From a virus (lineage: Duplodnaviria > Caudoviricetes): a DNA stretch of 64,000 bases. Positions 1-55,784 of this stretch are shown here, one piece after another; the first letter of the stretch is position 1, and each line of letters starts with the position of its first letter. The notes beneath the pieces were generated by a model, which was not told the DNA's origin, did no database searches, and worked only from the letters and a program-made list of their open reading frames with translations. The DNA is taken from the IMG/VR virus record IMGVR_UViG_2515154169_000001, positions 1 to 64,000 of that record; one strand, written 5' to 3'. The position numbers and the translations under genes are program-made.

Positions 1-183
1 GACGACCAGGACGGTGCCGTGCTTGGCGGTGAGCTTGTCGAGAACGGCCCGCATCTTGGGCTCGCTGTTCGGCAGCCGCTTGTCGAAGACCCGCTTTCCG
101 GCCCGGGTCACCGCGGTTCCGTGGTGCTCGCCCTTGCCGACGTCCAGGCCGAGGAAGACGTCCACATCGCCGGTGTCGATCAC
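1..183 (-). CDS. IS110 family transposase/recombinase, N-terminal part (runs off the window)
   Basis: Reverse strand from GTG at 183 reads VIDTGDVDVFLGLDVGKGEHHGTAV...KRLPNSEPKMRAVL, the DEDD RuvC-like start (GLDVGK) of IS110 transposases. Confidence 0.85.
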   Translation of the reverse strand, partial: MIDTGDVDVFLGLDVGKGEHHGTAVTRAGKRVFDKRLPNSEPKMRAVLDKLTAKHGTVLVV

Positions 184-420
184 GCTGATCCCTTACGAGG
201 TCGTGCTGTCCCGGCCTCGTTGGCGTGGCATCAGTCGCCGGCATCCACGTTACGAAGAGCCTCCCAGCACGCTGGTGGTCCTGCCTCTATTAGCGGTCTA
301 CCGATGCCTCCGGCCCGGTGACACCACCCCCCGGATCATGCGAACTACAGGGGGGAACAGTCATGCCGGACCGGAGGCCGGGAGCCCCATTGCGGGGCCA
401 CGAAGAAGGTAACGGGGGGA
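1..420 (-). mobile_element. IS110 family element (partial), including ~235 bp non-coding end upstream of the recombinase
   Basis: Transposase 5' end plus a long non-coding leader. The boundary near 420 is approximate, set where the early promoter module begins. Confidence 0.7.
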
Positions 421-1753: not shown

Positions 1754-2161
1754 ATGAGCGCGAGCACCTCCCGGTCCACGGGCAAGCTCGCCCCCCACTT
1801 CACCGCCGACGAGATCGAGCAGTTGCTCCGCGCGGTCGTCGACGCCACGTTCTTCGACGCCCACGACATGAGCCCCCGCAGGCAGGCCCTCGCCGCACGG
1901 GTCGACAAGCTGATCCACCTGGACATGGCGGGCAAGCTCCCCGACCCGCCGGAGCGCGAGGACACCGGCGACGAGATCCTCGCCACCGCCATGCGCACCG
2001 CGATCACCGGCGGCACGGGCATCGCCGTCGACCTCTTCCCGGACGGGTTCGAGATCACCGGCCCCGACGACGAATCGCTGTACCGGTCGGCCCGCACGCA
2101 CACCCGGCGCGGCCTGGCCACCTTCCTCGGGATCGCACAGCACGACGTCCACCCCGCCTGA
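1754..2161 (+). CDS. Hypothetical protein
   Basis: RBS GAAGGGA and high GC3. Confidence 0.7.
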   Translation: MSASTSRSTGKLAPHFTADEIEQLLRAVVDATFFDAHDMSPRRQALAARVDKLIHLDMAGKLPDPPEREDTGDEILATAMRTAITGGTGIAVDLFPDGFEITGPDDESLYRSARTHTRRGLATFLGIAQHDVHPA

Positions 2162-2230
2162 CCCCTTCACCCACCGGCCGGGCGCGCACCGCAGCGCGCC
2201 CGGGCGGACCACGTACGGAAGGAACGACGC

Positions 2231-2272
2231 ATGGCCGACATCACGATCAGTCACACCCGGGCCGAGGGCACT
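2231..2272 (+). pseudogene. DUF3560-like gene, 5' stub
   Basis: RBS GAAGGAA, then MADITISHTRAEGT, resembling the N-terminus of actinobacterial DUF3560 proteins; coding style breaks abruptly afterwards. Confidence 0.5.
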
Positions 2273-2530
2273 TCTGTTGGGCCGACGCGCCGGAAGTCGG
2301 CACCCGAGCTGATTGCGCGCTGTCCATCGATGTCGACGAACTCGTCATTCAGGACAGGAAGCTTGCTCATCACCTCGGCATACCCCTCGGGCTGGCCCAG
2401 CCCGCCACTGCCGCGAACCACCTCGACCACCTGCGGCAGTACGCGGTGCAGCGCCACGGCTCCATTGACCTTTTGCAGGACGAAGTCCGACGCCTCTTCG
2501 ACCTTCTGGCTGCCGTCCCGAAAGGTCCGG

Positions 2531-5500
2531 TCACCCGTAACCGAGCCGCTCCCGCCAGGCCCGGGACAGCCGGGGTCGCAGGAAAACCACCCCCTGCTGG
2601 GTGCCGACGGCGAGGTCGAGGACGGGGCTCGCGGGCAGGGCGGCGAGGGAGGTGACGAGCGCCGGGAGAGGCGCCGACCACACCTTCTCGCCACTCGGTA
2701 GATGGCACAGTGCCACGCCCTGTTCGTCGCTCACCGCGACCAGCGTGTCGCCGGCCGGGACCCGTCCCGTCCACAGCAACCGGCAGGCCGGTACACCCAG
2801 CTGACGCGGGGTGTCGGGGGCGGCGGAATCCCAGACGGTGACCGGGGCCGCATGAGCGTCGTCGCAGGCCTCCGGGTCCAGGAGGAGCAGGACGGCGCCT
2901 CCGTCGGACAACTCGGTCCAGCGCAGGAAGACGTCGACTTCGGAGATCAACCGGTGACCGATGTTCGAACGGGGTTCGGCCACCGGCTGGCTCGGCCGGA
3001 CCCGGTACCGGCTGTCCGTCGACAGATCGATGACTTCCGTCGTGCCCTCTCGCCCCTGCTGGGCCACCCACCGCGTCCCAGCTTTGGAGTGGTGCGGCAG
3101 AAGGAGGAAGACGTCGCCGAGGAGTTCCAGCGGCGTGCCCCTGCCGGGCGTGCCCGCTGAGACGTCCCACAGCCGGCCCTCCGTGACGCCGGTCCGCGGA
3201 GCCTCGCCTTCGACCGAGCGGTCGCATCGGCCCGCCACGCTGCTTTCCCAGCGCCAGATCGGGCGGGTGCCCGTCAGCAGCACGGTGGTTCCTGCCAGGG
3301 TGGTGAAGGCCGCCGAGCAGACCCAGTCGTTGCTCGGATCGACCGGCCAGGGAAGGTTGGTCCACCCAGGAGTGGAGTGCGGGGTGTCGAGGAGTCTCAC
3401 CCGGCCGCGGACTGCGTCCAGGCCCAGCAGCCGGGTGTGCGGATGGCTTGATGTCGGTGGCAGCAGGTGCGCCTGGACCCCGAGATAGGCCCACCCCTCC
3501 AGCCAGGTCAGGTTCGTGTGTTCGGCGGGTTCGCCCGGGGCGATGCGGTGCCAGACCGCTTGGGAGTACGGCACGGAACTGGACCACCCGGGCAGGTCGG
3601 AGTGGACGTCCGGCTTCACGTGGCCCGTGTAGTCCCAGGTCAGGAGCTGGAGCGAGCCGTCCGGGTCCACAGCGCGCTCCTGTTCGGAGACTGCGTCGAC
3701 GAACAGCTCCTCGACCAGGTCGAACGTGGTGCCGGGGGGCTCCGGGATGGGGGCAACGCGCCGGACCAAGCGGCCGGAGACGGCCATGACGCCGGTGGAG
3801 TCCTCGGGCCAGGCGATGATTGAGTCGATCTCCGGAGCGGACAGCTCTGGCGGTGCGGATCGCGGGTCGCCCGGGCTGTCGTGGTCGGCCCACCGCCACA
3901 GTCGAGCGGTCCCGTCGTTGCCCACCGCCAGGATGTCGGGTCCCGATTCACCGGGAGCGGGCAGTAGCCGGAGGGCGCAGACTGCGCCCTCGTGCCCCCA
4001 CAGCGGTGAACCCACGGCGTCCGCGGTCGTGCAGCTGACCACGCTGACCTGGCTTCCGTAGCTGGTCGTCGCGGCGTATAGCCCGTCCCGCACCAGCACG
4101 GGTGCCAGGAGACGCGCATGGTCGGCTTCCTTGTCCCGGGCCGTGATGCGTTCTGCGGGGCCGTCGAGACGCGCGATGAGCAGATCGTAGTGGTCCTGCG
4201 TCACGAACACGGGGTCGTCCTCGCTGCTCAGGGCGAAGCCGCTCTCCTGCCAGGCGAAACCGTTGAACGGCAAGGCCACGATCCGCCCCGATCCCGTGCC
4301 GATCAGCGTCACCCGGGTGCGCGGCTCGCACACCGCGGCGACGGTGCCCTGACCGCCATGGATGCGGTCGGCCAGGAAGGGGCGGATGCAGTCGTCGAGC
4401 AGGACGTCGACGTCCCCCTCCGCGTCTAGGGAGTGCAGGGTGACACGACCGCGCACCACGTCGCACAGCAGGAGCCGGACGCGGCCGTCGGCGTCGTGGG
4501 TGAGGCAGGCGGATGCCCTAGGCGTGTCGACATCGTTCTTCGCGGATGTCTCGCAGGCCACCTGGACCAGTGGTTCCAGCAGGGGCAGCGTGCACACGCG
4601 GACCTGTTCGGCGTCCCCGTACACGACCACGGGTGTGCCGTCGTCGTGGAACCCCGCGTCGAACAGCAGCGTTGCCCCACTGGGGGCGGTGTGGAGCAGC
4701 GTCTGGTCGGCGACGTCCCATATTCGGATGTCCCCCCTGGCGTCGAGAGTCACTGCCTGCGCCGGGCTCGCACCGTCAATGAGCAGAGCGAGTCCCGCGA
4801 CGTCGGCGGGATGCGGCAGCAGGGTCGACTGAGAGGGGTCGTCGAGCCACCACACGTGCACGTAGGGGGCTGACGGAGGCGCCGCGAGCACGACGTGGCC
4901 ACCGTCCGGCAGGACCAGGTCCTCTATCTGCCACCCCATGTTGACCGAGCGGATCGCAAAAGCGTCCCCGTCGTGCCGGCCTACCACGCGATGCGGGGTG
5001 ATCTCCCGTGGCTCCACCTGCACGCGCTCCAGCACGACCGACAGGTCCTGGGCCTGCCCGGACAGCGCGCGCTCCCCGTGTGTCGCCGCGACGAAAGCCA
5101 GCAGAGCTGGCTTGTCGACCCGGGCGGAGTCGGTGTTGGCGACGAGGTAGGCGTAGCGCTCGACGGCGAGGGCGAGCGTGGGACGGCGCAGTGCTCGCCG
5201 TACCGCTGGCAGCAGCGTCGCCGGGTCGGCGTGGATGACGAACGAGGCATCTTCGATGAGATCGTCCAGTTCTCCCGAAGCCGCGGCGTGCGTAGACAGG
5301 TGGGTGCGGACGTAACGATGCGCATGCAACCAGTTCCGGTCGGGCACGAGCTCCAGCAGGGTCGCCACGAAGCACTCCTGAAGGTCCGCCAGATCGCGGT
5401 ATTTGAGCGCCCGCCACTTCAGATGATCCGTCAGTTCTTGGTGGTACAAACGGAAGTACTTCGTGCCGTCCACTTCGGCGTGCGCCAGATAGGAGCCGTC

Positions 5501-7192
5501 CTCGTCCAGCAGCAAGTCGACGTCCGCCTGGACGAGGGGGATGCCCGAGAGCTGCGTTGCCACCCGCACCCAAAGACGGCGCGGCAGGCCGTTGCCCTCT
5601 CCGAAGGCCAGCACGGTGAGCAGGGCCATGGTCTTGGCGTGCCGCTCCTGCGGCAGTCGCTGGAGATACGCCTCGAAGGCGCCTCCCACGTCCGAGGGCA
5701 GTTGCTCGGCCCAGCCCGGCGTGGTGGTGTCGACGACCGGGCCGCGCAACAGCGCGCTCGCCGTCATCCGGGCGACCAGGAAACACCTCCCGGCCCGGCG
5801 GGCTACCTCGCGGGCGACCCGGCGGGCCACGTCCGGCCGGTGTTCGTACGGTGCCCCCTCGTCGCAGAGGATCTTCGCCACGTACTCGGCTGGCCTTGTG
5901 TCCTGCGCATACTCACCGTCGTCGAGGTCGATCACCGGCATGTGGCCACCGAGGTGGGGCAGCAGCTCGCGACGTGAGCCGACTACGAGCCGGACACAGG
6001 CCACCGCCGCGAGGGGGCGGAGCAGTTCCCACGCGATGCGGCGGGCCTCGGCCTTGTCACCCGCTGAACCTGCCTCGTCGAGCGAGTCGACGACGATCCG
6101 GAAGGGGCGTTCCCGGTCCATGAGGGCGGTGCACAGGGCTACCGGCGTGCCCGCGCGGACGTCCGCCGCGGCGGCGATGCGCTGTATTAGGGCCTCCAGC
6201 GTTTGATGGTGCGCGTTGACGGAGGCGTCAGCACAGCCCTCCAGCACCAGTCGGCCCAGGACAGCGGACTTGCCCGAGCCGGGGTCGGCGGTGACGACCA
6301 GGGCTCGGCCCTGCTCGTCGCCCTCCAGATGGGCGCGTGCCACCCGCAGGGCCCGCTCACGTCCGGTGAAGTAAGAACCGGGGTCGTGCACATGCTCCAC
6401 ACCACGGCCGCGCGGCTCGAAGTGCGAGGAGAGGTCGGAGGCGTCGAAGACCGTGCGCCCGTCGCCCATGACTTCGGCGCGCGGGTCGAAGGAGGGGTTC
6501 ACGAAGAATGGGGGCCGCTCGGACTGGTCGACGGACGAGCACGCGGCCCGCTGGGCCAGCCCCGCCGCCGTTAGGGAACGATTGATCCGCTCGGCAAGCG
6601 TGCTCGGCGCCAGGTACCGTTGCGATGGCCCGTCACCCCGATGGCTCGCCTCGGCCATTTCGGTCACGAAGGCGCCGTCGACCGCCAGATCGCGATGCCG
6701 GGCGGAGGCCAGCAGCCAGGTGCCCGCGCCGAATCCGTCGCCGCGTCCCCGGCCGGCCACGATGGTGTCGGTGACGGTGCCAATCTCCGCCGTGGCCGCC
6801 GCCGCGTGACAGGCGTCCACCACAAACAGGACGTTGCGGACCGGTGATGTGGCAAGGATTTCGGCAAGGTTGGGCAGTGACAGCCACGAGCGGGGTCGCC
6901 CCGGCTCGCTGTCAGCGCAGGCCAGACGGTACTGGCCGGCTGGGGAGCGGTCCCCGTGCCCGGCGTAGTACACAACGACGACGTCGTCAGCGGTCAGTCC
7001 GGGGGTGTGGCACCAGTCGGCCAAAGCGTTCTCGAAGGACTCGCAGTCCGGGTCGTAGGAGACGGCCGTCAGGACACGCTCGTAGCCCATCGCCACGAAC
7101 AGCTCGGTCGCCTGGTCGACGTCCTTGTGGGCCAGGGGGAGTTCGGGGGCTTCCCGGTAGTGGCGGGTGCCCGCAGCGATGAGGTAACGCAT
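2531..7192 (-). CDS. Caspase-like (peptidase C14) + STAND/NACHT-like ATPase + beta-propeller sensor (NLR-like defence protein), ~1553 aa
   Basis: YYAGHG and VDACHA catalytic dyad, Walker A ADPGSGKS, Walker B IVVDSLDE, YFRLYHQ winged-helix motif, WD40-like repeats (GHEGAVCAL...DGTARLW). ATG at 7192 overlaps the upstream stop (TGATG). Confidence 0.85.
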   Translation of the reverse strand: MRYLIAAGTRHYREAPELPLAHKDVDQATELFVAMGYERVLTAVSYDPDCESFENALADWCHTPGLTADDVVVVYYAGHGDRSPAGQYRLACADSEPGRPRSWLSLPNLAEILATSPVRNVLFVVDACHAAAATAEIGTVTDTIVAGRGRGDGFGAGTWLLASARHRDLAVDGAFVTEMAEASHRGDGPSQRYLAPSTLAERINRSLTAAGLAQRAACSSVDQSERPPFFVNPSFDPRAEVMGDGRTVFDASDLSSHFEPRGRGVEHVHDPGSYFTGRERALRVARAHLEGDEQGRALVVTADPGSGKSAVLGRLVLEGCADASVNAHHQTLEALIQRIAAAADVRAGTPVALCTALMDRERPFRIVVDSLDEAGSAGDKAEARRIAWELLRPLAAVACVRLVVGSRRELLPHLGGHMPVIDLDDGEYAQDTRPAEYVAKILCDEGAPYEHRPDVARRVAREVARRAGRCFLVARMTASALLRGPVVDTTTPGWAEQLPSDVGGAFEAYLQRLPQERHAKTMALLTVLAFGEGNGLPRRLWVRVATQLSGIPLVQADVDLLLDEDGSYLAHAEVDGTKYFRLYHQELTDHLKWRALKYRDLADLQECFVATLLELVPDRNWLHAHRYVRTHLSTHAAASGELDDLIEDASFVIHADPATLLPAVRRALRRPTLALAVERYAYLVANTDSARVDKPALLAFVAATHGERALSGQAQDLSVVLERVQVEPREITPHRVVGRHDGDAFAIRSVNMGWQIEDLVLPDGGHVVLAAPPSAPYVHVWWLDDPSQSTLLPHPADVAGLALLIDGASPAQAVTLDARGDIRIWDVADQTLLHTAPSGATLLFDAGFHDDGTPVVVYGDAEQVRVCTLPLLEPLVQVACETSAKNDVDTPRASACLTHDADGRVRLLLCDVVRGRVTLHSLDAEGDVDVLLDDCIRPFLADRIHGGQGTVAAVCEPRTRVTLIGTGSGRIVALPFNGFAWQESGFALSSEDDPVFVTQDHYDLLIARLDGPAERITARDKEADHARLLAPVLVRDGLYAATTSYGSQVSVVSCTTADAVGSPLWGHEGAVCALRLLPAPGESGPDILAVGNDGTARLWRWADHDSPGDPRSAPPELSAPEIDSIIAWPEDSTGVMAVSGRLVRRVAPIPEPPGTTFDLVEELFVDAVSEQERAVDPDGSLQLLTWDYTGHVKPDVHSDLPGWSSSVPYSQAVWHRIAPGEPAEHTNLTWLEGWAYLGVQAHLLPPTSSHPHTRLLGLDAVRGRVRLLDTPHSTPGWTNLPWPVDPSNDWVCSAAFTTLAGTTVLLTGTRPIWRWESSVAGRCDRSVEGEAPRTGVTEGRLWDVSAGTPGRGTPLELLGDVFLLLPHHSKAGTRWVAQQGREGTTEVIDLSTDSRYRVRPSQPVAEPRSNIGHRLISEVDVFLRWTELSDGGAVLLLLDPEACDDAHAAPVTVWDSAAPDTPRQLGVPACRLLWTGRVPAGDTLVAVSDEQGVALCHLPSGEKVWSAPLPALVTSLAALPASPVLDLAVGTQQGVVFLRPRLSRAWRERLGYG

Positions 7193-8097
7193 CAGACAGG
7201 CCCGTTCCCCGGCAGCAGGCCCGTCAAGATGGCCCGCCCCGTCTCGACGGCGGTCAGGTACCGCGTGGCGTCGTGCATGTGGCTGCCGTTGTGCACCGCC
7301 ACGTCCCGCACGCCGTCGCCGAAGGAAGGGCCGAGTTCGCGTACGACGGCGACGATGTCGGTGTCGTCGGCGATGTTGGTCCATGCCCGCAACGGCTTTG
7401 GCCACACGGCCCGGCAGTTCTCGGGCGCCGGTTCGAGCCGGTCGAGGACGAGGGCGCGCATGCCCAGCGGCGATCCCAGGGTGACGAGCATTGGGATGTC
7501 CCATTCGGCGTTGCGCCGCGGGTCGCAGAGCGTCTCGTAGGCGATGACCGACCCGAGCGAATGGGCCACGACGACCCGTGTCCTCGGGGTGATCCGCGCG
7601 GCCAGCCGGTCCTGCGCCGCACGCCGGATCTCCTCGTCGGTGAAGTAGCCGGTCATCTGCTTGAGACTGCCGATCAGCGCGCGGTCGAGGACTCCTCGCA
7701 GGTACCGGGCGCCCGTGAGGGCGTCCAGAGCTGCTCGTACGGCGTTGAGCCGGAGGGTCCGGGAGGCGGTCCAGCCCACGGGGCCCCGCGTACCGGTGGC
7801 TACGGGATCCGGGACCGCGGGGTCGGTGCGCGCCGCCTCGGCCCACCACTCCATCAGGAGGGCGAACTCCGCGTCGTTGTCGACATCGCCCTCGTCGTAC
7901 GGGAGTTCGGCCCCCGCGCGGGTGCCGCGTGGCCGGAACAGGTCACCGTAGAAGGCCACCCCCACGTCGTCGGACGAAGGCACCGGTCCACCCGCCAGGC
8001 GTGTGCCGCCCTGGAGTTCGGGAACGACGTCCCGTGCCAAGGAATCCTCGCTCAGGTACTGCTTGCCGACGCCGTGCACGAAAACAACCTTGCTCAA
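7192..8097 (-). CDS. Alpha/beta hydrolase (lipase-like), putative effector
   Basis: VFVHGVG oxyanion motif, AHSLGS nucleophile elbow, LVTLGSP, DIVA Asp and a C-terminal His; translationally coupled to the caspase-STAND gene. Confidence 0.85.
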   Translation of the reverse strand: MSKVVFVHGVGKQYLSEDSLARDVVPELQGGTRLAGGPVPSSDDVGVAFYGDLFRPRGTRAGAELPYDEGDVDNDAEFALLMEWWAEAARTDPAVPDPVATGTRGPVGWTASRTLRLNAVRAALDALTGARYLRGVLDRALIGSLKQMTGYFTDEEIRRAAQDRLAARITPRTRVVVAHSLGSVIAYETLCDPRRNAEWDIPMLVTLGSPLGMRALVLDRLEPAPENCRAVWPKPLRAWTNIADDTDIVAVVRELGPSFGDGVRDVAVHNGSHMHDATRYLTAVETGRAILTGLLPGNGPV

Positions 8098-8182
8098 TGC
8101 CCCTCCCCGAGTGAGGGAACAAGATTACGCGGGCAAGGTCAGCCCGGCAGCTGGGTGACCAAGTCGAAGCGGCGCTCAGTCT

Positions 8183-8703
8183 GGGCGGTCGCCTCGGCTG
8201 ACTACGAGAAGCACCGGCGCAGTCCCGGGGTGACGCTCCGCCGGATCGACGTCAAGGAGGCCGACCTGCGCAGGGTCGAGCGGCAGCAGATCCGCACCCT
8301 GCGGTGCCTCGTCGAGGACGTCGCGCGTACCGACCAGATCGCCGAGTCCTGGGAGGAGCTGGGCCGGCGGCACGGCGAACTCGCCGAGGAGATCGGTTAC
8401 TGGCGGGAGGTCATCGCCGAGGCCGAGGCGAACGGCGTGAAGATCTGGTCCCGGGACGACTTCACCAAGGGCGACTTCGTGCGGTCTGGCGGCACCTGGT
8501 ACGAGGTGCTGCGGGTGAACCCGAAGACGCTGACAGTCCCGTACACGCTGAACGTGGCCAAGGTGGTGACGGCCGCCGAGCACCAGCTGCGAGGGGTGAC
8601 GTACCCGATCGAGTACAGCAAGGTGGCCGGGCGCATGAGCGGCGAAGAGATGCAACGGGTGCTCGCCGAGGTCGCCGCCCGCCGCGAGGCGAACCAGCCC
8701 TGA
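8183..8703 (+). pseudogene. DUF3560-like gene, 3' remnant
   Basis: TLRRIDVKEADLRR...WSRDDFTKGDFVRSGGTWYEVLRVNPKTLTV with high GC3 and no start of its own. Confidence 0.6.
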
Positions 8704-8786
8704 CCTGTGGCTCCTTAGAAGTTTCTTTGCCAAATCCACTTGGATTGCACGGTTAGTCCAAGTGGATTTGGCCAAGGATGGAAGTA
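8701..8786 (+). promoter_or_regulatory. Early promoter/operator module, copy 3
   Basis: TGACCTGTGG...GCCAAATCCACTTGGA-N-TCCAAGTGGATTTGGC...AAGGATGGAAGTA, upstream of parB. Confidence 0.8.
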
Positions 8787-8829
8787 GATCAACAACACAC
8801 CATCCATGACAAATCAACAGGGAGCGATT

Positions 8830-9951
8830 ATGACCGTCACCACCACCACTCAGGCCACCACTTCCACCAGGAAGGCCCCGGCCCCCAAGAAGGCGGCACC
8901 CGCCAAGAAGGCCCCGGCCAGCAAGCTGGCGGCCCCCACGGCGGCCGAACCGAAGACGGTTCAGAAGACCATCCCGGTCGACCGCATCGACCGGGACCCC
9001 GGTCAGCCTCGTGAAGAGTTCAACGAGGCCAAGCTGAACGAGCTGGCCGCTTCGATGAAGAAGCTCGGGCAGCTCCAGCCGATCACCGTCCGGTACGTGC
9101 CCAGCACCAAGCGGTTTACGTTGGTCATGGGCGAGCGCCGGTGGCGGGCCGCCAAGATCGCGGGCCTCACCGAGATGACCGCGCTCGTCATGCACGGCGT
9201 CCCGGAAGGTTCCCGCGAGACCTTCGCCAAGGCGGTTGCCGAGAACTGCGGGCGCCTCGACATGACCCCCGTCGAGGAAGCCATGGCGTTCCAGCGCCTG
9301 GTCGACGCCGAGTACAGCATCGAAGAGGTCGCCGAAATGGTCGGCAAGTCCTCGGCCTACGTCGGCTGGAGGATCGACCTCCTCCGGCTGTGCGAGCCCG
9401 CCCGCGAAGCCCTCGGCAAGGGCCACCTGCCCGTCGGCCTCGCCTGGTACGTGTCCTTGCTGAACTGCGACAACCAGATGCGGTTCCTCACCCGGTACGC
9501 CCGGGGCGACTTCAAGAGCACCCGGGAAGCGGAGGCCTTCGCCCAGGCCGCCCGAGCGGAAGAGAAGCGGCAGGCAGAGCAGGGCAGCTTCTTCGTCCTC
9601 GCCGAAGAGGCCGCCACACCCGGCAGCGACCAGGACGCCCTCCCCGGAGCCCTCGACGTCCCCGAGGAGGAGCGCGAGCGCATCGTCTCCGAGCGCACCA
9701 AGTGGGTCGGCAAGATCGACCGGCTCGGCAACGCGGGCGCGATCCTCGCCGAGCTGGCCACCGCCGACCCCGAGGAGCTGGCACTCCTCCTCGCCGGTAC
9801 CCCCGGCGGCGTCCCCGGCCACGCCCTGCGCATCGAGCACCTGCGGGACGTTGCGATGCGCGCCATGAAGAACCTCCGCCAGGCCCAGGCCATCGCCGCG
9901 GTCCGCGCGAACAGCATCCAGATCAACCCGGAGGCCGCCGCCTCCGCCTGA
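8830..9951 (+). CDS. ParB/RepB/Spo0J family protein
   Basis: QPREEF...LAASMKKLGQLQPI...GERRWRAA, ENxxR motif and HTH; Lys/Ala-rich N-terminal tail. Confidence 0.9.
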   Translation: MTVTTTTQATTSTRKAPAPKKAAPAKKAPASKLAAPTAAEPKTVQKTIPVDRIDRDPGQPREEFNEAKLNELAASMKKLGQLQPITVRYVPSTKRFTLVMGERRWRAAKIAGLTEMTALVMHGVPEGSRETFAKAVAENCGRLDMTPVEEAMAFQRLVDAEYSIEEVAEMVGKSSAYVGWRIDLLRLCEPAREALGKGHLPVGLAWYVSLLNCDNQMRFLTRYARGDFKSTREAEAFAQAARAEEKRQAEQGSFFVLAEEAATPGSDQDALPGALDVPEEERERIVSERTKWVGKIDRLGNAGAILAELATADPEELALLLAGTPGGVPGHALRIEHLRDVAMRAMKNLRQAQAIAAVRANSIQINPEAAASA

Positions 9952-18261: not shown

Positions 18262-18334
18262 GCGTTGGTGGTGTAACAGCAGCACACCCGGCTTCCGGCC
18301 GGGAGGTCCAGGTGCGAATCCTGGCCGGCGCTCC
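18262..18334 (+). tRNA. tRNA-Gly(TCC), atypical
   Basis: Cloverleaf: acceptor GCGTTGG/CCGGCGC, D-arm GTGT/GCAC, anticodon arm CCCGG-CTTCCGG-CCGGG, T-arm CCAGG-TGCGAAT-CCTGG, discriminator T, then CC(G). Confidence 0.85.
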
Positions 18335-18369: not shown

Positions 18370-18464
18370 GGCATTGAGCAGGGGAAACGCGGCAGATGCC
18401 GGATTAGCCGGTTGCGTTACCATCTCGCCCCGTCTTGACCGCCCCTCGTCGAGGAGCCGCCCCC

Positions 18465-19910
18465 ATGTTCCACGGCTCGATCCCAGCGGACATGTGCCGC
18501 ATCGTCAGGGAGCACGTCTCCCTCTGGACCGACGTCACCGACGTCTACAACGTGTGCTGCGGGAACTTCACCGTAGAGAAGACCATCGCCAGCCTCGGCA
18601 AGAACCTGCACTCGTGCGACGTGCTGATGTACTCCACCGCGATCGGCCGGTACTACGCCGGCGACCCGTACCCGCTCGTCCTCACCCCGTCCGCCGAGGC
18701 CGAGTTCCCGTGGATCACCCAGTACCACGACGCCCCGGAGAAGCAGCTCGCCACGATGCTGCTGTGCACGCGCCTCGCCCCGCTCATGGGGAAGCGCTCC
18801 AACCCGTACTGGGACAAGATGCGCCTGGCCTACGAGCAGCAGTGGCCCGACCTCCACGCGAAGACCACCGCGAAGATCCTGGCCGCCGGCGAGTCGCTCA
18901 AGCTCGCCTCGTACGCCGCCGAGGACGCCCTGACGTGGGTCGACAAGATCCCCGACGGGGCCGGAGTCGTGTCCTATCCGCCGTTCCACGGCGCGGGCAA
19001 GAACTTCGTGAGGGACTTCGCGAAGCTGGAAGAGATGTTCGAGTGGACTCCGCCCGAGTTCACGATCATGGAGGATCCTGAGCTGGAGTACCTGATCCAG
19101 CGGATCACGGACCGGGAGCACTGGCTGCTCGGCACCAACGAGGAGATCCCGGAGATGGAGGAGTTCCTGCGCGGCCGGACCCGCACCACGAACCGCGGCA
19201 TCCCGATCTGGGTGTACGCCAAGTCCGGGCCGATCCGCCTCGTCCAGCCCCGCCAGCACACCGAAGCGTGGCCCGGCCCGCACCTCGCCGACGAAGAGAT
19301 CGGCGACACCGCCAGCCTCGCGGTCCTCACCTCGGGGCAGTTCGCGGCGCTGCGGTCGGCGTACATGAACCACAACATCCGGCCGGGCTCGGAGTCCCTT
19401 GCCGTCGCCGTCTTCGTCGACCGGAAGCTCGTCGGGGTGTTCGCGTACTCGTGGGCGCCGACCCTCGGGAATTGGGCCGCGCACCTGCCGCAGCAGCCCA
19501 GCGTCTACCTGCTGTCCGACTTCCCCGTGTCCACCAGCCGGTACGCGAAGCTGTCGAAGCTGATCGTGATGGCCGCCGTGTCCCGCGAGGCCCAGCTCCT
19601 CGCCTGGCGGCACGGACACCGCCGCTACCAGTCCCTCGCCACCACGGCGTTCACGAAGCGCCCGGTGTCGATGAAGTACCGCGGCGTGCTGCGCCTGCTG
19701 AAGCGCGATCAGAAAGACGTCCTCAAGGAGGACTGGGCGCACGGCATCGACCCGAACGACTCGTACTACGCGCAGCAGTACCAGCTGCAGTACGGCGGCC
19801 CGTACACCGGGAAGCCCATGCAGCAGGTCCTCACCGAGTGGAAGAAGCGGTACGCCAAGGACCTCAAGCCGGCCGCCGGCGCCCGCGCCGCAGCCGCATC
19901 CGGCGACTGA
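18465..19910 (+). CDS. Putative adenine-modification enzyme: N6-methyltransferase-like fold plus C-terminal Mom-like GNAT domain
   Basis: FHGS, VYNVCCGNFT, SCDV and SYPPF resemble degenerate Dam-type motifs. VFVDRKLVGVFAY, YLLSDF, SKLIV, TTAFT and SMKYRG follow a GNAT-like pattern. Confidence 0.7.
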   Translation: MFHGSIPADMCRIVREHVSLWTDVTDVYNVCCGNFTVEKTIASLGKNLHSCDVLMYSTAIGRYYAGDPYPLVLTPSAEAEFPWITQYHDAPEKQLATMLLCTRLAPLMGKRSNPYWDKMRLAYEQQWPDLHAKTTAKILAAGESLKLASYAAEDALTWVDKIPDGAGVVSYPPFHGAGKNFVRDFAKLEEMFEWTPPEFTIMEDPELEYLIQRITDREHWLLGTNEEIPEMEEFLRGRTRTTNRGIPIWVYAKSGPIRLVQPRQHTEAWPGPHLADEEIGDTASLAVLTSGQFAALRSAYMNHNIRPGSESLAVAVFVDRKLVGVFAYSWAPTLGNWAAHLPQQPSVYLLSDFPVSTSRYAKLSKLIVMAAVSREAQLLAWRHGHRRYQSLATTAFTKRPVSMKYRGVLRLLKRDQKDVLKEDWAHGIDPNDSYYAQQYQLQYGGPYTGKPMQQVLTEWKKRYAKDLKPAAGARAAAASGD

Positions 19911-27349: not shown

Positions 27350-27691
27350 TTGATCGGTCCCGTTGAACTCGCCCTGCTAGGGCTCGCGGGGTACCGCGGC
27401 ACCCAGCTGCTCGTCCATGACTCCATCCTCGATCCGGCCCGTGACAAGGTGTTCGCCTGGCACCTGGAGCGGCCCGAGTCGAAGCCCCGCACGTTCGTGA
27501 TCACCCTGATCTCGTGCGTGTACTGCACCGGCTGGTGGGTCGCCGGGGCCATCCTCGCGACTTACCTCCTCGCCACCGGCCGGTTCGACCAGGCGCCGCT
27601 GCTGGTGCACGGCATCGAGTGGCTCGCGGTCGCGGGCGCCGCGGTGCTGATGAACCGTGTCGACGACACGATGGGCCGGGTGGGCTCATGA
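27350..27691 (+). CDS. DUF1360-like membrane protein
   Basis: YRGTQLLVHDSILDP.R...LISCVYCTGWW; TATGAT -10-like box at 27303. Confidence 0.75.
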   Translation: MIGPVELALLGLAGYRGTQLLVHDSILDPARDKVFAWHLERPESKPRTFVITLISCVYCTGWWVAGAILATYLLATGRFDQAPLLVHGIEWLAVAGAAVLMNRVDDTMGRVGS

Positions 27692-29442
27692 CCACCGCCG
27701 CGCCCACGATGCTCTCCGCCGCCGCGTCCCGCTACGTCGCCCGCAAAGTCCGGGGCAAGGGCGGCAGCCCCGATCAGGGCTGGCAGAACCGCGCCTGGGA
27801 CATGTACCACGCCGTGCCCGAGGTGCGGTTCGCCGCGAACTGGATCGGCAACGCCATGTCCGGCGCCCTGCTGTACGCCGCCCGCCGCGCCGACGACGGC
27901 ACGATCGAACGCGCCCCCGACAACCACCGGGCGAACGAGATCGTGTCCCAGATCGCCGGAGGCCCCGACGGGCAGGCCAAGATGCTCGGCGCGTTCGGGA
28001 AACACCTCACCGTCCCCGGAGAGGGCTGGATCATCGTCCGCCCGAACGCGGACGTCCTCAGCCCCGACAGCCCCGAAGACGGCCACGACTGGCGTGTGCT
28101 GTCGGTGCGTGAGGTGAGGCAGCAGGCCGGGAAGCTGATCGCCACCATCGAAGGCGACGAGATCGAGGTCCCCGAAGGCGACCAGGAGAACGTCGACCCC
28201 GACGCCCCCGTGGCGATCCGCGTGTGGGAAGCCGACCCCGAGCGCGCCATCGAAGCCGACTCCCCGGTCCGCTCCTCCCTGGAGCTGCTGGAAGAACTCC
28301 AGCTGCTGAACGCCGCCGTGAAGGCCATCGCCCGCTCCCGCCTGACCGGCCGCGGCATCCTCCTCGTCCCCAAGGGCACCCGCTTCCCGACGACGACCAC
28401 GCAGGCCGGCGCCGAGGACGACCTGATCGAGATCCTGATGACGGTCGCCGAGACCGCCATCCGCGACCCCGAGAGCGCCGCCGCCACCGTCCCGATCGTG
28501 CTGGAAGTCCCCGCCGAGTCCATCAGCGACTTCAAGCTGCTGACGTTCGAGTCCGACTTCGACGAGCTCGCGCTCAAGCTCCGAGAGGAGGCCGTGCGCC
28601 GCTTCGCGATCGGCATGGAGATCCCCGCCGAATTCCTCCTCGGCCTCGGCGACGTCAATCATTGGAGCGCATGGGCCCTCACAGAAGAGGCGATCCGCCT
28701 CGGTATCGAACCCAAGCTGGCCACGCTCTCGTACGCCATCACGCAGCAGTGGATGCGCCCGCTCCTCGAAGCCGAAGGCATCGAAGACTGGCACCGCTGG
28801 ATGGTCTGGTACGACAGCAGCCCCCTGCGGGTCCGCGCCAACCGGTCCGAGACCGCGCTGCAGGTCCACGACCGAGGCGTCATCAGCGACGAGGCGCTGC
28901 GCCGTGAGACCGGCTTCGACGACTCCGACGCCCCCGACGAGGCAGAGCTCGCCCGCCGGAAGAAGGCCGCCGAAGAGGAGGCACCGGCCGAGCCCGAGCT
29001 GCCGGTCGACGAGACGACCAGCCCGCCCGACACCCAGCAGGACGAGCCCGAGCCCGACGACCTCCCGGCCTCCGCCGCCCCCGACCGGGCTGCCCTGTAC
29101 GCAGCCGCCGACGGCCTGATCTGGGCCGCCCTCTCCGCCGCCGGGGAGAAGCTGAAGCGCACCCCGGCCTGCCCCCGCTCCGAACGCTCCCGGGCCCGCG
29201 AGATCCAGGCCGCCGCCCTCCATACCGCCCTGCCGGTCGCCGCCGACGGCGTGGAGAAGTGGCGCCTCCTCGACGGGGCATGGGCACGCGTCCCCGAGAT
29301 CGCCGGCCGGTACGGCCTCGACCCCGAATGCCTGACCGCCTCGCTCGACGACTACGCCCGCGAGCTGATCGCCGCCGGAGTAGAGCACGACTACGGCGTG
29401 GTCCCCGGCGTCCTCACCTCGTGCCTGGCAGCGGCCGCGTGA
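27688..29442 (+). CDS. Portal protein
   Basis: Position; WQNRAWDMY..VPEVRF, ADSPVRS, NHWSAW motifs of actinophage portals. Confidence 0.8.
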   Translation: MTTAAPTMLSAAASRYVARKVRGKGGSPDQGWQNRAWDMYHAVPEVRFAANWIGNAMSGALLYAARRADDGTIERAPDNHRANEIVSQIAGGPDGQAKMLGAFGKHLTVPGEGWIIVRPNADVLSPDSPEDGHDWRVLSVREVRQQAGKLIATIEGDEIEVPEGDQENVDPDAPVAIRVWEADPERAIEADSPVRSSLELLEELQLLNAAVKAIARSRLTGRGILLVPKGTRFPTTTTQAGAEDDLIEILMTVAETAIRDPESAAATVPIVLEVPAESISDFKLLTFESDFDELALKLREEAVRRFAIGMEIPAEFLLGLGDVNHWSAWALTEEAIRLGIEPKLATLSYAITQQWMRPLLEAEGIEDWHRWMVWYDSSPLRVRANRSETALQVHDRGVISDEALRRETGFDDSDAPDEAELARRKKAAEEEAPAEPELPVDETTSPPDTQQDEPEPDDLPASAAPDRAALYAAADGLIWAALSAAGEKLKRTPACPRSERSRAREIQAAALHTALPVAADGVEKWRLLDGAWARVPEIAGRYGLDPECLTASLDDYARELIAAGVEHDYGVVPGVLTSCLAAAA

Positions 29443-34300: not shown

Positions 34301-34339
34301 TAAGATGCCCCACTAGACGACTGCTGGTTGTGGGCCGGG
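34301..34339 (+). promoter_or_regulatory. Late promoter/leader motif before the capsid gene
   Basis: TAAGAT followed by GCTGGTTGTGGGCCGGG. Confidence 0.7.
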
Positions 34340-34369
34340 TCTCCTGATCGATCACTGGAGATCCGTCCC

Positions 34370-36019
34370 ATGGCCGAGTTCGAGCTTCCTGAGGACCTGA
34401 CTGCCCTCTCCGACGATGAGCTGTCTGAGGTTCTCGACGGCGCCCGCGCCGCGTTCGATGCCCTGTCGTCGTCCGACAACGTCACCCCCGACGGCCTCGC
34501 CGCTATGCGCGAGCTGGCCGCCGGTGTCGAGTCCATCCGCACCGAGCAGGCCGCCCGCGTCGCTGCCGCCGAGGAGGCCGCCCGCGAGATCGAGGCCCTG
34601 GCCGCGCAGATCCGCGGCGAGGAGGAGGCCACCGCAGCGGCCGAGGCCGAGCAGGCCGCCGAGCCGGCCACCGCCGCCGCCGAGCCCGCCCCGGTGGTGG
34701 AGCCGGAGCCCGTCGCCCCGCCCGCCCCGGTCGCGCAGACCGCTTCGGCCGCGCGCCGCTCCCTGAACCTGTCCGGTGTGCGGCAGCGTCAGCCCCGCGT
34801 CCTGCCGGAGCCGCCGGCCCCGACCACCAGCATCACTGCGGCGGTCGATGTCCCCGGCTACACCCCCGGTTCGGCCCTGGAGTTCGGCCAGATCACCGCT
34901 GGGATCATCTCCCGCGCCAACGCCCTCAAGACCGCGGGCGGCGGCGTCGGTCAGGTCATCTCCTACCGGCACCCGTACGCGGCTGACCTCATCGTCACCG
35001 ACTCGTCGTCGGCGCCGGAGGGCACCGAGGTTGCGATGCGGGCGGCCGACCAGCGGCGCCTGCCGCAGCAGAACCTAGTCGCGTCCGGTGGCTGGTGCGC
35101 CCCGTCGGAGACGCTGTACGAGATCACCGACATCGCCTGCCCCGACATGCTGTGGGACCTGCCCGAGGTGCAGCTCGCCCGGGGCGGCCTGCGCTACTAC
35201 AAGACGCCGTCGCTGGACGTCGGCGCCCTGACCTGGGTCCACACCGAGGCCGACGACATCTCCGGCGCCACGAAGCCGTGCTTCAAGGTGCCGTGCCCGG
35301 ACCCGGTGGAGGTCCGCTGTGACGCGGTCGGTGTCTGCCTTGAGGCAGGCATCCTGACGCAGCGCCACTTCCCGGAGCTTGTGTCCTGGTACCTGCGGAA
35401 CACGATGGTCGCCCACGAGATCCGCATCCGCTCCGAGCTGTGGACGAAGGCCACCGCCCTGGCGACCCCGGTCACGCTGGCCGCCACGTTCGGCGCCGTG
35501 TCCGCCGTGTTCGCCGCTGTGGCGCTGCAGGCCGCCGACATGATCGAGCGCCACAGCTTCTGTGACTCGATCAGCCTCGAAGTGGTCTTCCCGTGGTGGT
35601 CGCGGAACCTGTTCCTCGCCGACATCGCGCGCCGTAACGGCGTCGGCATCGACGAGGTCTCCAACGCCGACGTGCAGGACGTGTTCAGCCCGCTCGGTGT
35701 CCGCATCCAGTGGGCCCGCAACCTCACCCCGGCCGTGCCGACCGACATCGGCGGCGCCACCCCCGCCACGGCGTGGCCGGACGAGATCAGCTTCCTGATC
35801 TACCCGGCCGGCCAGCTCCAGCTGGGCCGCGGCGAAGAGGTCAACCTCGGCGTGATCCACGACAGCACGAAGTTCAGCACCAACGACTACACGGCGCTGT
35901 TCGCGGAGGAGTGCATCGCGCTGATCGACCGCTCCGTCGACACCCGGTACGTCACCGTCCCGGTCTGCCCCTCGGGCACCACCGGCGGCCAGCAGCTCCT
36001 GACCTGCCCCGCGGCCTGA
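34370..36019 (+). CDS. Major capsid protein with N-terminal scaffold-like region
   Basis: Ala/Glu coiled coil, ITAAVDVPG, LVASGGWCAPSE..Y, RGG, DS....NDYTALFAEE; position in the module. Confidence 0.85.
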   Translation: MAEFELPEDLTALSDDELSEVLDGARAAFDALSSSDNVTPDGLAAMRELAAGVESIRTEQAARVAAAEEAAREIEALAAQIRGEEEATAAAEAEQAAEPATAAAEPAPVVEPEPVAPPAPVAQTASAARRSLNLSGVRQRQPRVLPEPPAPTTSITAAVDVPGYTPGSALEFGQITAGIISRANALKTAGGGVGQVISYRHPYAADLIVTDSSSAPEGTEVAMRAADQRRLPQQNLVASGGWCAPSETLYEITDIACPDMLWDLPEVQLARGGLRYYKTPSLDVGALTWVHTEADDISGATKPCFKVPCPDPVEVRCDAVGVCLEAGILTQRHFPELVSWYLRNTMVAHEIRIRSELWTKATALATPVTLAATFGAVSAVFAAVALQAADMIERHSFCDSISLEVVFPWWSRNLFLADIARRNGVGIDEVSNADVQDVFSPLGVRIQWARNLTPAVPTDIGGATPATAWPDEISFLIYPAGQLQLGRGEEVNLGVIHDSTKFSTNDYTALFAEECIALIDRSVDTRYVTVPVCPSGTTGGQQLLTCPAA

Positions 36020-43999: not shown

Positions 44000-44136
44000 G
44001 GGCGTGCGTTCCCGACCGACGGTGCAACGTCGGCCTACTCGATGACCAGAAGTCGATCACTCGGGAAGGTACGCCCTCCGCGTCCAACCCAAGGCCCGTC
44101 CACAGGTCATGAGCATTGCTCCCCAGTACGCGCGGG

Positions 44137-55755: not shown

Positions 55756-55784
55756 AACCTCTCCACACCTCGTGAGGTTGCCCG

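Follow-up and report, generated by a model that had tools for sequence, protein, structure and literature searches.

Two adjacent genes occupy positions 2531-8097 of the window (the whole 64,000-nt stretch of DNA that was analysed), both on its minus strand. The coordinates and strand first given for this reverse-strand pair, in a reading made from the letters of the DNA before any database search (hereafter the sequence-only reading), proved exact. The genes overlap by 1 nt.

8097..7192, minus strand: alpha/beta-hydrolase ORF (301 aa; TTG start), a predicted protease-activated zymogen effector
8100..8108, minus strand: Shine-Dalgarno-like GGGGAGGGG, 2 nt 5' of the hydrolase TTG, read from the sequence
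7560-7558, minus strand: codon of hydrolase catalytic residue S180, held in the motif AHSLG; the other catalytic residues are D247 and H275
7192..2531, minus strand: caspase-NTPase-propeller gene (1553 aa; true start ATG 7192)

The hydrolase stop codon (TGA, 7194-7192) shares one nucleotide with the ATG of the caspase gene (TGATG), and translational coupling of the two genes is plausible because of this overlap. The longest possible start for the long ORF (7849) was rejected, the real start being ATG 7192. Values of GC3 were 0.87 for the hydrolase and 0.85 for the long gene, a bias expected of real genes (window DNA is 70% GC), and the bias was even along the whole of the long gene. A promoter and terminator scan of positions 2100-8900 gave no signal exceeding shuffled expectation. 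Both genes and their motifs are intact: AHSLG, AGHGD, VDACH and the Walker A and B motifs were all found, in agreement with the earlier claim of intact catalytic motifs, and the hydrolase triad and the caspase His and Cys are conserved.

In its domain order the long protein resembles apoptosome and NLR proteins, with a caspase-like protease, a putative STAND-type NTPase and two beta-propellers.

6473..7192, minus strand: caspase-like protease domain (clan CD, C14), residues 1-240, matching Pfam Peptidase_C14
6958-6956, 6811-6809 and 7123-7121, minus strand: codons of caspase H79, C128 and the predicted S1 residue D24, respectively
4913..6412, minus strand: P-loop NTPase module, putatively STAND type, about residues 261-760, assigned by Walker motifs and architecture
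6280-6266 and 6097-6074, minus strand: Walker A GSGKS (residues 305-309) and Walker B IVVDSLDE (366-373)
2534..4912, minus strand: C-terminal tandem divergent beta-propellers, residues 761-1553, the presumed sensor, assigned by AF2 and Foldseek

Judged by its profile match (Peptidase_C14, PF00656; 47.4 bits, cut-off 21.4), the N-terminal region is a clan CD family C14 peptidase domain, with H79 in AGHGD and C128 in VDACH. Residues H79, G80, D126 and C128 were invariant across 43 aligned partner domains, and profile matches in the PDB were to metacaspase-4, metacaspase-9, MALT1 and caspase-1. The NTPase is labelled putatively as STAND-type on the basis of its Walker motifs and of sub-threshold Pfam matches (AAA_16, 23.7 bits, cut-off 32.6; nSTAND1, 22.7 bits, cut-off 27.1), and the architecture fits. 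This region had no sequence relative in the PDB and was matched by tblastn in 78 of the 80 family loci surveyed below, the match in locus L018 being a 30-residue remnant only. For the C-terminal part, Pfam WD40 gave marginal matches and no significant propeller call, and the predicted beta-propeller fold was established by structure only. The AF2 model of residues 761-1553 (mean pLDDT 81.7) consists of nearly all strands, and its best Foldseek matches in the PDB were tandem WD40 propellers (2ymu, Gemin5, Utp21 and full-length Apaf-1, 3shf), with E values from 4e-15 to 2e-13, bearing out the propellers proposed by the sequence-only reading. This part of the protein also diverged fastest, with a median identity of 41% compared with 68-75% elsewhere and the lowest identity in 22 of 22 loci.

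The description of the pair as "NLR-like" stood for domain architecture but not for family membership. Avs and NACHT profiles gave no significant match in PADLOC or Pfam, and the PADLOC check on such membership returned a sole weak match to PDLC02987 "caspase" (E 2e-4); "NLR-like" therefore denotes architecture, not family. PADLOC 2023 contains no model for an alpha/beta-hydrolase-caspase system.

The three hydrolase catalytic residues (S180, D247 and H275) were each conserved in 99 of 100 aligned sequences, comprising the query and 99 family representatives. Pfam PGAP1 and Abhydrolase_6 matched the protein weakly. The AF2 model was of high confidence (pLDDT 94.5), and its closest solved folds were lipases, at weak similarity (TM 0.3-0.5). 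Two arginines stand out as candidate cleavage sites (↓, predicted cut).

7918..7920, minus strand: codon of R60, candidate site 1 (GTR↓AG), coil in the model, in a clade-conserved G-T/A-R motif
7786..7788, minus strand: codon of R104, candidate site 2 (GTR↓GP), coil in the model, in a clade-conserved G-[TGS]-R-G motif
7815-7774, minus strand: loop peptide VPDPVATGTRGPVG (residues 95-108), containing R104 and GTRGPVG

The candidate bonds, R↓A at R60 and R↓G at R104, are spaced 44 residues apart, and the segment that they delimit (61-104) is modelled as a loop, a helix (75-91) and a second loop; block 101-110 has the lowest pLDDT within the fold (69). An insertion had been put forward as the candidate cleavage loop. 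R104 does sit inside it, but the stretch is clade-specific rather than a private insertion, and the second candidate, R60↓A, had been missed.

Absence of conserved linkage between the two genes had been named by the sequence-only reading as something that would count against a functional pair. Among 80 loci with hydrolase homologues (40-95% identity), the caspase partner was kept in 78 (77 by tblastn and L062 by caspase motifs in the alignment), and in three orders: hydrolase then caspase, adjacent (49 loci), caspase-STAND then hydrolase (23 loci, every one with a 4-nt overlap), and divergent (5 loci). Of 53 metagenome loci flanked by 1.5 kb or more, 38 gave a caspase HMM match. A few hydrolase genes were orphans (L018, L059), and the hydrolase may therefore not always depend on a protease; others were fused to further domains, as TIR-hydrolase (P0206) and WD40-CHAT-hydrolase (P0149). 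Three paralogous modules occur together in a single Streptomyces genome of the set. A sample of 401 Actinomycetota genomes yielded two genomes with a match at E 1e-30 or better, neither of them Met-type; contexts for Met-type hydrolases came from the metagenome scan.

We then compared the two candidate sites with each other and with the protease. Across 97 representatives, the two loops of one protein shared a better top 4-mer match than in any of 2000 permutations (z = 5.0), and both sites switched together across the family between R, K, L, M or Q, with the motif types T-R↓, T-K↓, T-L↓, E-[FV]-L↓, [SAT]-M↓ and Q↓G occurring in step in both loops. An automatic best-4-mer classifier of basic sites proved too noisy, since it frequently matched PPG to PPG, and was replaced by a test for R/K in the site-1 window. 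By this test, 108 of 128 hydrolase-caspase pairs had R/K in the window together with D/E at caspase column 24 (D24 here), 15 had neither and five were discordant, a concordance of 123/128 (Fisher p = 8e-15, uncorrected for phylogeny). These co-variation statistics take no account of shared ancestry, and with about five motif types making up the non-basic class, independent events are few. In alignment, the Asp in the C-x-N-D motif of metacaspase-4 falls at column 24, and this Asp may be equated, by matching Cys-x-x-Asp spacing, with Asp95 of TbMCA2, described as lying on helix alpha1 and forming part of a proposed S1 pocket (PMC4357240). In sister clades, this alpha1 Asp gives way to A, S, V or Y where the substrate loops have also lost their basic residues; the pocket residue changes in step with the loops, Asp/Glu becoming Ala, Ser, Val or Tyr, as do columns 18, 159 and 165. 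A rule that every Leu-type module has D24 changed to Ala was rejected, since modules of the R-x-L type retain Asp/Glu: what the column-24 residue tracks is whether the loop contains a basic residue, rather than Leu itself.

We consider it quite probable that the pair is an alpha/beta-hydrolase-caspase immune module joined to its own sensor and acting as follows. The propellers would bind a trigger, probably a foreign (phage) protein, and the NTPase, as expected from its family, would drive oligomerisation, bringing caspase domains together and so activating them. The caspase, predicted to be Arg-specific through D24, D126 and C128, would cut the co-translated hydrolase after R60 and R104, and this double cut would excise a 44-residue inhibitory segment (residues 61-104). 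The activated hydrolase would then kill or arrest the cell in time to stop the invader from completing its cycle (abortive infection). Trigger, oligomerisation, hydrolase substrate and anti-phage outcome are the parts of this scheme that we infer. By analogy with a homologous module from Lysobacter, the caspase most likely switches on a dormant lipase-like hydrolase by cutting it. The sequence-only reading had likewise supposed that the caspase cleaves its neighbour and so frees a toxic activity, a proposal that matches the homologous module and that the linkage and both co-variations support. On this scheme, the hydrolase should be cut after R60 and R104, the effect should require C128, S180 and D24, and fragments 1-60 plus 105-301 should be toxic.

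The hydrolase might instead be no substrate of the caspase but a second, independent effector, or else a factor that regulates the protease or protects against it, with the R motifs having a structural role. The fusions to TIR (P0206) and to WD40-CHAT (P0149), which have no obvious need for a separate protease, and the orphan genes point this way, although in P0149 itself the hydrolase directly follows a CHAT (caspase-like) protease. Cleavage has been demonstrated for the Lysobacter pair (Evans et al. 2025), the matched changes between the two loop motifs, and between them and the caspase pocket residue, would not be predicted by a purely structural role, and both motifs are modelled in coil or lower-confidence loops bracketing one helix. 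We therefore regard a non-substrate hydrolase as very unlikely. Cleavage-activated killing might alternatively serve a role other than anti-phage defence, such as programmed cell death, kin or colony conflict or a stress response in a multicellular actinomycete, or an addiction that keeps the carrier element stable. Such systems are reported to be statistically tied to multicellular prokaryotes (Kaur et al., PMC7159879), roles beyond phage defence are among those discussed by Evans et al. (2025), and the family is overwhelmingly chromosomal, with at least 566 relatives among 600 genomic stretches examined against four among 2.9 million viral contigs (one of them full-length besides this record). 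The closest relative among the matches listed, L001, lies in a conjugative element with a TraG/T4SS coupling protein and DUF4913, a setting that fits defence islands and element addiction alike. However, a fast-diverging sensor would be expected under pressure from changing targets, for instance invader proteins, sister modules that join a protease and effector to STAND sensors have been shown to respond to phage terminase and portal proteins, and carriage in a prophage fits exclusion of superinfecting phages. A non-phage role thus seems unlikely, if far from negligible.

The carrier was identified as a Streptomyces prophage, with portal, major head and tape-measure genes, as the sequence-only reading had surmised in calling it phage-like; related proviruses lack the cassette at the corresponding position.

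2281..8152, strand not assigned: extent of the portable two-gene cassette, from the alignment limits of L001 and L002
971..1267, plus strand: small phage ORF on the left flank of the cassette, with homologues beside DUF3560/ParB genes in L181 and L179
8326..8559, plus strand: remnant of a DUF3560-family gene, the right-hand scar (tblastx 58-60% to L181 and L179)

The closest genomic relatives among those listed, L001 and L002, share 91-93% nucleotide identity with the window, but their alignments are limited to 2361-8152 and 2281-8148, and their flanks are unrelated. Homologues of the left ORF occur in two related proviruses that are at least 96% complete: L181 (44% over 93 aa, E 2e-21), a few genes upstream of the ParB gene, and L179 (46% over 90 aa, E 1e-17), directly upstream of it. 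Intact DUF3560 relatives, which have a Pfam DUF3560 match, precede ParB in related proviruses; the window fragment at 8326-8559 had no Pfam match. Comparison with these proviruses shows that the cassette has been inserted into the prophage at their DUF3560 position, where it replaces phage sequence, being flanked by the left phage ORF and the right DUF3560 remnant. The pair could alternatively be host chromosomal DNA, or an independent islet, taken in by an over-extended provirus call, in which case there would be no need to explain how the phage's own proteins escape the sensor. The record begins within an IS110-like fragment and has the cassette near its left end, 2.5-8 kb in; the right end overshoots into host-like genes (radical-SAM-like, PP-binding, enoyl-reductase); neither integrase family searched for (PF00589, PF07508) was found in the 76-kb record; and in the one other viral contig that has both genes, they too lie at the edge. 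Given the phage homology of the ORF at 971-1267, the DUF3560 remnant to the right of the cassette and the hydrolase's presence in 0 of 5 related virus records, we judge a host-DNA origin to be rather improbable. Further searches concerned the prophage itself: ParB and methyltransferase queries found nothing in viral contigs, a DAM-like/GNAT protein query found relatives of the prophage there, a separate ParB protein search gave no indication of boundaries, and megablast/blastn against sequenced phages found nothing beyond short matches at gene level (head protein, methylase, IS110 element).

With the pair read as a phage-carried immune module, we lean slightly towards a broader view, namely that the family has repeatedly re-coded its cleavage specificity and that the window's Arg-type copy, captured by a phage, replaced a DUF3560 gene and may arm the prophage against superinfection. 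If so, natural caspase-like proteases exist with a P1 preference neither basic nor acidic, and each module would be insulated from the many paralogous modules of the same genome. This apparent re-coding of specificity may be new. The co-variation of sites and pocket offers independent comparative evidence for the double-cleavage mechanism and suggests how paralogous protease-effector pairs avoid cross-activation. Prophage carriage also raises the question of how a temperate phage avoids triggering its own sensor, and of which phages are excluded.

The kind of system is already described (Kaur 2020, Evans 2025), and the locus adds one member to it, compared here by published description. The pairing was first noted by Kaur et al. 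2020 (eLife; PMC7159879), according to whom a caspase domain in these conflict systems is in every case accompanied by an adjacent gene for an alpha/beta-hydrolase. Evans et al. (bioRxiv 2025.11.14.688446) describe a pair from Lysobacter capsici AZ78 in which LcCaspase (Cys129) cuts LcHydrolase after Arg73 and Arg117, both R↓G, the N- plus C-terminal LcHydrolase fragments being toxic; for the hydrolase module, the preprint describes cleavage and fragment toxicity, apparently without a phage-defence assay. Compared by published residue positions rather than by sequence alignment, the window pair resembles this one in its lipase-like alpha/beta-hydrolase of about 300 aa adjoining a caspase-like protease, in the position of the catalytic Cys (128 here, 129 there), and in two Arg sites 44 residues apart that bracket a small middle fragment. 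The protease is in both cases fused to sensors of the beta-propeller/STAND kind, the STAND part being putative in the window protein, and the module is widespread in Actinobacteria. The window pair differs in its site 1 (R↓A, against R↓G in the published logo), in an N-terminal fragment of 60 rather than 73 residues, and in being carried in a prophage. Its propellers are barely seen by Pfam WD40, unlike those of relatives L033, L036, L054 and L062, and none of 10 family representatives looked up was Lysobacter-named. The locus is thus a well-preserved actinomycete example of a module biochemically characterised so far in one Lysobacter pair.

Other known systems share parts of this design. A hydrolase from Microcystis (L066, 41% identity) lies directly upstream of a caspase-VMAP-M14-VMAP-C protein, as in VMAP ternary systems (Kaur 2020), an arrangement that ties the window's hydrolase family to the pairing described by Kaur et al. 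However, the window protein has a putative STAND NTPase and propellers in place of the VMAP scaffold, and identity as a VMAP ternary system was rejected, there being no VMAP-M or VMAP-C domains and no vWA or MoxR neighbours but phage genes instead. Gasdermin-protease and EACC1-caspase systems similarly have a neighbouring latent death effector licensed by site-specific cleavage, although the effector predicted here is an enzyme zymogen needing two cuts rather than a pore-former freed by one. The EACC1-associated caspase model of NCBIfam (NF047832) was the best caspase subfamily match, at 57.6 bits, far below its cut-off of 140, and EACC1-caspase identity was rejected on this score and for want of a 5' EACC1 transmembrane gene: the locus holds no EACC1 or gasdermin gene, and its 5' gene encodes a soluble hydrolase. 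With the metacaspases and paracaspases (C14B: AtMC4, AtMC9, TbMCA2, MALT1), the group of its best sequence matches in the PDB, the window caspase shares His-Gly, Asp-x-Cys and an Asp starting helix alpha1, the last in line with cutting after Arg/Lys; unlike them, it has no p10-type or Ca-regulatory region, and its activation would presumably come from sensor-driven oligomerisation. Like the Apaf-1/NLR STAND sensors, the long protein combines, in this order, an effector or recruitment domain, a P-loop NTPase putatively of STAND type and a C-terminal repeat sensor, but its protease is fused directly, whereas that of Apaf-1 is recruited through CARD.

The cassette consists of two open reading frames on the minus strand of the window, which has a base composition of 70% GC:

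8097-7192, minus strand: hydrolase, 301 aa, from a TTG at 8097 to a TGA at 7192, preceded by GGGGAGGGG
7192-2531, minus strand: caspase-STAND-propeller protein, 1553 aa, from an ATG at 7192

One base is common to the hydrolase stop codon and the ATG of the 1553-aa frame (TGATG), and third-position GC bias was as in real genes for both the hydrolase (0.87) and the long gene (0.85, even along its length). Therefore, the coordinates, strand and translational coupling assigned to this pair in the sequence-only reading were right. A start at 7849 for the long frame, taken from a mechanical ORF list, was rejected as an out-of-frame overlap with the hydrolase gene.

Against Pfam, the 301-aa protein matched PGAP1 and Abhydrolase_6, both sub-threshold. 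In an alignment of the query with 99 representatives, H8-G9, S180 (AHSLG), D247 and H275 were each conserved in no fewer than 97 of the 100 sequences. The AlphaFold2 model was confident (pLDDT 94.5); its closest solved folds, distant only, were lipases (Archaeoglobus lipase, Bacillus LipA), and no solved structure was found as a sequence relative. At least 922 relatives were detected among 8000 candidates scored in a 90%-clustered collection, mostly from Streptomyces, Kitasatospora, Embleya and Nocardia, while cluster representatives of the family numbered 4397 at E ≤1e-3 and 471 at E ≤1e-30. Many family entries (P0003, P0013, P0020 and others) bear the wrong name "antibiotic ABC transporter ATP-binding protein"; these proteins are alpha/beta-hydrolases, and the misnaming may originate from a true ABC-F ATPase gene located directly upstream of the hydrolase in some genomes (5412-7103 in locus L003). 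Fused forms also occur, namely a TIR-hydrolase (P0206) and a single 1598-aa WD40-CHAT-hydrolase chain (P0149), and the hydrolase is C-terminal in further long proteins (P0154, P0163, P0165, P0200, P0203).

All of the motifs and domains named for the pair in the earlier reading were found by Pfam, motif position or structure model. The caspase domain of the long protein scored 47.4 bits against Pfam Peptidase_C14 (cut-off 21.4), with H79-G80 and D126-x-C128 invariant across 43 partner sequences. Its closest PDB sequences were metacaspases 4 and 9 and MALT1, proteases that cleave after basic residues. P-loop NTPase motifs follow (Walker A GSGKS, 305-309; Walker B IVVDSLDE, 366-373), and STAND-family Pfam matches to this part were below threshold. 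The C-terminal 793 residues are almost pure beta-strand in the predicted model (pLDDT 81.7), which resembles tandem WD40 propellers, including those of Apaf-1. This C-terminal region is common to only 23 of the 80 fetched loci, and more distant partner proteins have canonical WD40 repeats or VMAP domains instead. In all 22 loci with a full-length match, it was more divergent than any of the other three parts (median identity 41%, versus 68-75% for the others), a pattern that would be expected of a target-recognition domain.

We assessed the linkage of the two genes by scanning 185,579 species genomes, in which at least 566 loci encode a hydrolase relative, and fetching the best 80 with 8-kb flanks. 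Searches by tblastn recovered a caspase homologue in 77 of these 80 loci and an NTPase-region match in 78, although the match in L018 was only a 30-residue remnant. One locus with no tblastn caspase match (L062) has AGHG and DTCHSG motifs visible in the alignment; L018 and L059 are orphan hydrolases adjoining LysE and TetR genes. Gene order varied: the hydrolase preceded an adjacent caspase in 49 loci, the caspase-STAND gene preceded the hydrolase in 23 (with a 4-nt overlap in all), and the genes were divergent with epimerase genes in between in 5. Of 80 metagenome loci taken, 53 had 1.5 kb of flank or more, and a caspase was present in 38 of those. The conserved linkage, the lack of which had been named as counting against the proposal, is thus present in nearly all of the best 80 genomic loci and in most of those metagenome loci. 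Because the linkage persists through changes of gene order and in relatives as distant as 40% identity (in Microcystis, at a locus with the caspase fused to VMAP domains), these comparisons constitute strong evidence that hydrolase and caspase form a functional unit. Three paralogous cassettes were observed in a single Streptomyces genome (L015, L030, L071), with hydrolases 47-75% identical to that of the window; these systems multiply within genomes.

The closest cassettes among the best 80 loci (L001 and L002) shared 91-93% nucleotide identity with the window, limited to 2281-8152, and their settings differ (a conjugative element; beside a patatin gene). Therefore, the two genes travel as a unit. 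The hydrolase was present in none of five related virus records, three of which have ParB. Two of the ParB-bearing relatives have a homologue of the window ORF at 971-1267, placed upstream of either a DUF3560 gene or a DUF3560-ParB fusion. In the related provirus records L179 (773-4387) and L180 (13007-16303), ParB forms the C-terminal portion of a protein of 1099-1205 aa whose N-terminus is a DUF3560 domain. The interval 8304-9951 (plus strand) of the window contains a ParB gene encoding 388 aa and, of the part upstream of ParB in those relatives, only a short remnant:

8326-8559: remnant of a DUF3560 gene, of which 60-75 residues survive

Together, the position of the ORF 971-1267 homologues in relatives and this remnant indicate that the cassette and ORF 1661-2161 took the place of phage sequence that lay between two phage genes. 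Among 2.9 million viral contigs, only one other full-length hydrolase relative was detected; it lies at the edge of its contig and likewise adjoins a caspase-STAND gene. Carriage of the cassette by phages is rare.

The window makes up the opening 64 kb of a 76-kb record listed as a "provirus" in IMG/VR (CheckV completeness 100), which has the following features:

27445-29442: portal
34304-36019: major head protein
42752-44056, minus strand: Mutator-family (IS256-like) transposase (Pfam E 3e-69)
55776-60401: tape measure
73214-76158 of the record (13214-16158 of L082, the stretch covering its right end): radical-SAM-like, phosphopantetheine-binding and enoyl-ACP-reductase-like genes

Portal, major head, tape measure and lysin genes bear out the phage-like carrier proposed from sequence, and further phage-type genes encode a Mu-F-like protein, an HNH endonuclease, methylases and ParB. 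The transposase is inserted among phage structural genes on the strand opposite to theirs, and a prophage with such an insertion may be damaged or domesticated. Window positions 1-418 match a gene for a hypothetical protein in Streptomyces phage TurkishDelight at 77% identity and show weak similarity to an IS110-family element; the record begins inside this IS110-like fragment, and its left end probably reflects a break in the assembly or a boundary that falls within an IS. The right-end genes look like host secondary-metabolism genes, and therefore the provirus call overshoots. Given the IS elements, this host-like right end and an integrase search of the record that found none, the provirus boundaries are uncertain. 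Elsewhere, a tRNA-Gly(TCC) (18262-18334, plus strand) lies directly upstream of a gene (18408-19910, plus strand) with Pfam "phage DAM-like domain 1" and "phage GNAT-like" domains, which occurs at 84-90% identity in five other virus records. A 1752-aa phage ORF (37087-42342, plus strand) had no Pfam match, and the only match of a 797-aa phage ORF (45367-47757, plus strand) was the unannotated family phrog_18824.

Two candidate cleavage sites were identified in the window hydrolase, GTR60|AG (site 1) and GTR104|GP (site 2), both in coil of the model. Its least confident internal block is 101-110 (pLDDT 69), and R104 of predicted site 2 falls in the very peptide that the sequence-only reading had proposed as a candidate loop for cleavage. 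Across the family, the same short motif occurs in both loops of one protein, and motifs differ between clades: T/H-R in the clade of the window and its "GHR|G / xR|LRTP" sister clade, and T-K, T-L, R-x-L, E-[FV]-L, [SAT]-M or Q-G in others. When the two loops of each protein were compared in 97 representatives less than 50% identical to each other, their best 4-mer match exceeded all 2000 permutations (z = 5.0). We also compared hydrolase with caspase in 128 pairs, of which 78, the window pair among them, were genomic and 50 metagenomic. R or K in the site-1 window accompanied Asp or Glu at the alignment column of caspase D24 in 108 pairs, 15 had neither (A, S, V, Y or R at the column), and 5 were discordant (Fisher p = 8e-15, ignoring shared ancestry; the non-basic class comprises about five motif types). 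The co-variation spans L001-L080 and metagenome loci L089-L168, and corresponds to hydrolase residues 56-66 and 94-119 and caspase D24 in the window. In the alignment, column 24 falls on the Asp of the metacaspase-4 C-x-N-D motif, and by matching Cys-x-x-Asp spacing we equated it with TbMCA2 Asp95. The latter is described as lying on helix alpha1 within a proposed S1 pocket, and in gingipain the alpha1 Asp forms a salt bridge to P1 Arg (PMC4357240). If both loops are cleaved, the protease pocket would be predicted to change in step with them; no such change would be predicted for loops that were structural only. The co-variation of loops and column 24 across clades suggests that cleavage specificity has been re-coded and paralogous modules insulated from each other.

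Kaur et al. (eLife 2020, PMC7159879) reported that wherever these conflict systems have a caspase domain, a neighboring alpha/beta-hydrolase gene is always found with it. According to Evans et al. (bioRxiv 10.1101/2025.11.14.688446), the Lysobacter capsici caspase (Cys129) cleaves its hydrolase at Arg73 and Arg117, and the N-terminal plus C-terminal fragments are toxic; R|G occurs at both sites in a logo of 161 homologues, and in this family, common in Actinobacteria, the proteases carry beta-transducin repeats or STAND NTPases as fused domains. The main-text passages of that study on specificity, co-evolution and LcHydrolase (the L. capsici hydrolase) make no mention of non-Arg cleavage motifs. 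This described module, the conserved linkage and the loop-pocket co-variation all lend support to the mechanism put forward in the sequence-only reading, in which sensing would activate the caspase to cleave the hydrolase and release a toxic activity. By residue position, the window hydrolase resembles that of L. capsici in having two Arg motifs with 44-residue spacing, and the catalytic Cys of the window caspase is residue 128 rather than 129; unlike the R|G of L. capsici, site 1 of the window hydrolase is R|A. The window system is a new member of a kind already described and partly characterized, set apart by propellers that diverge strongly, by R|A at site 1 and by its carriage in a prophage.
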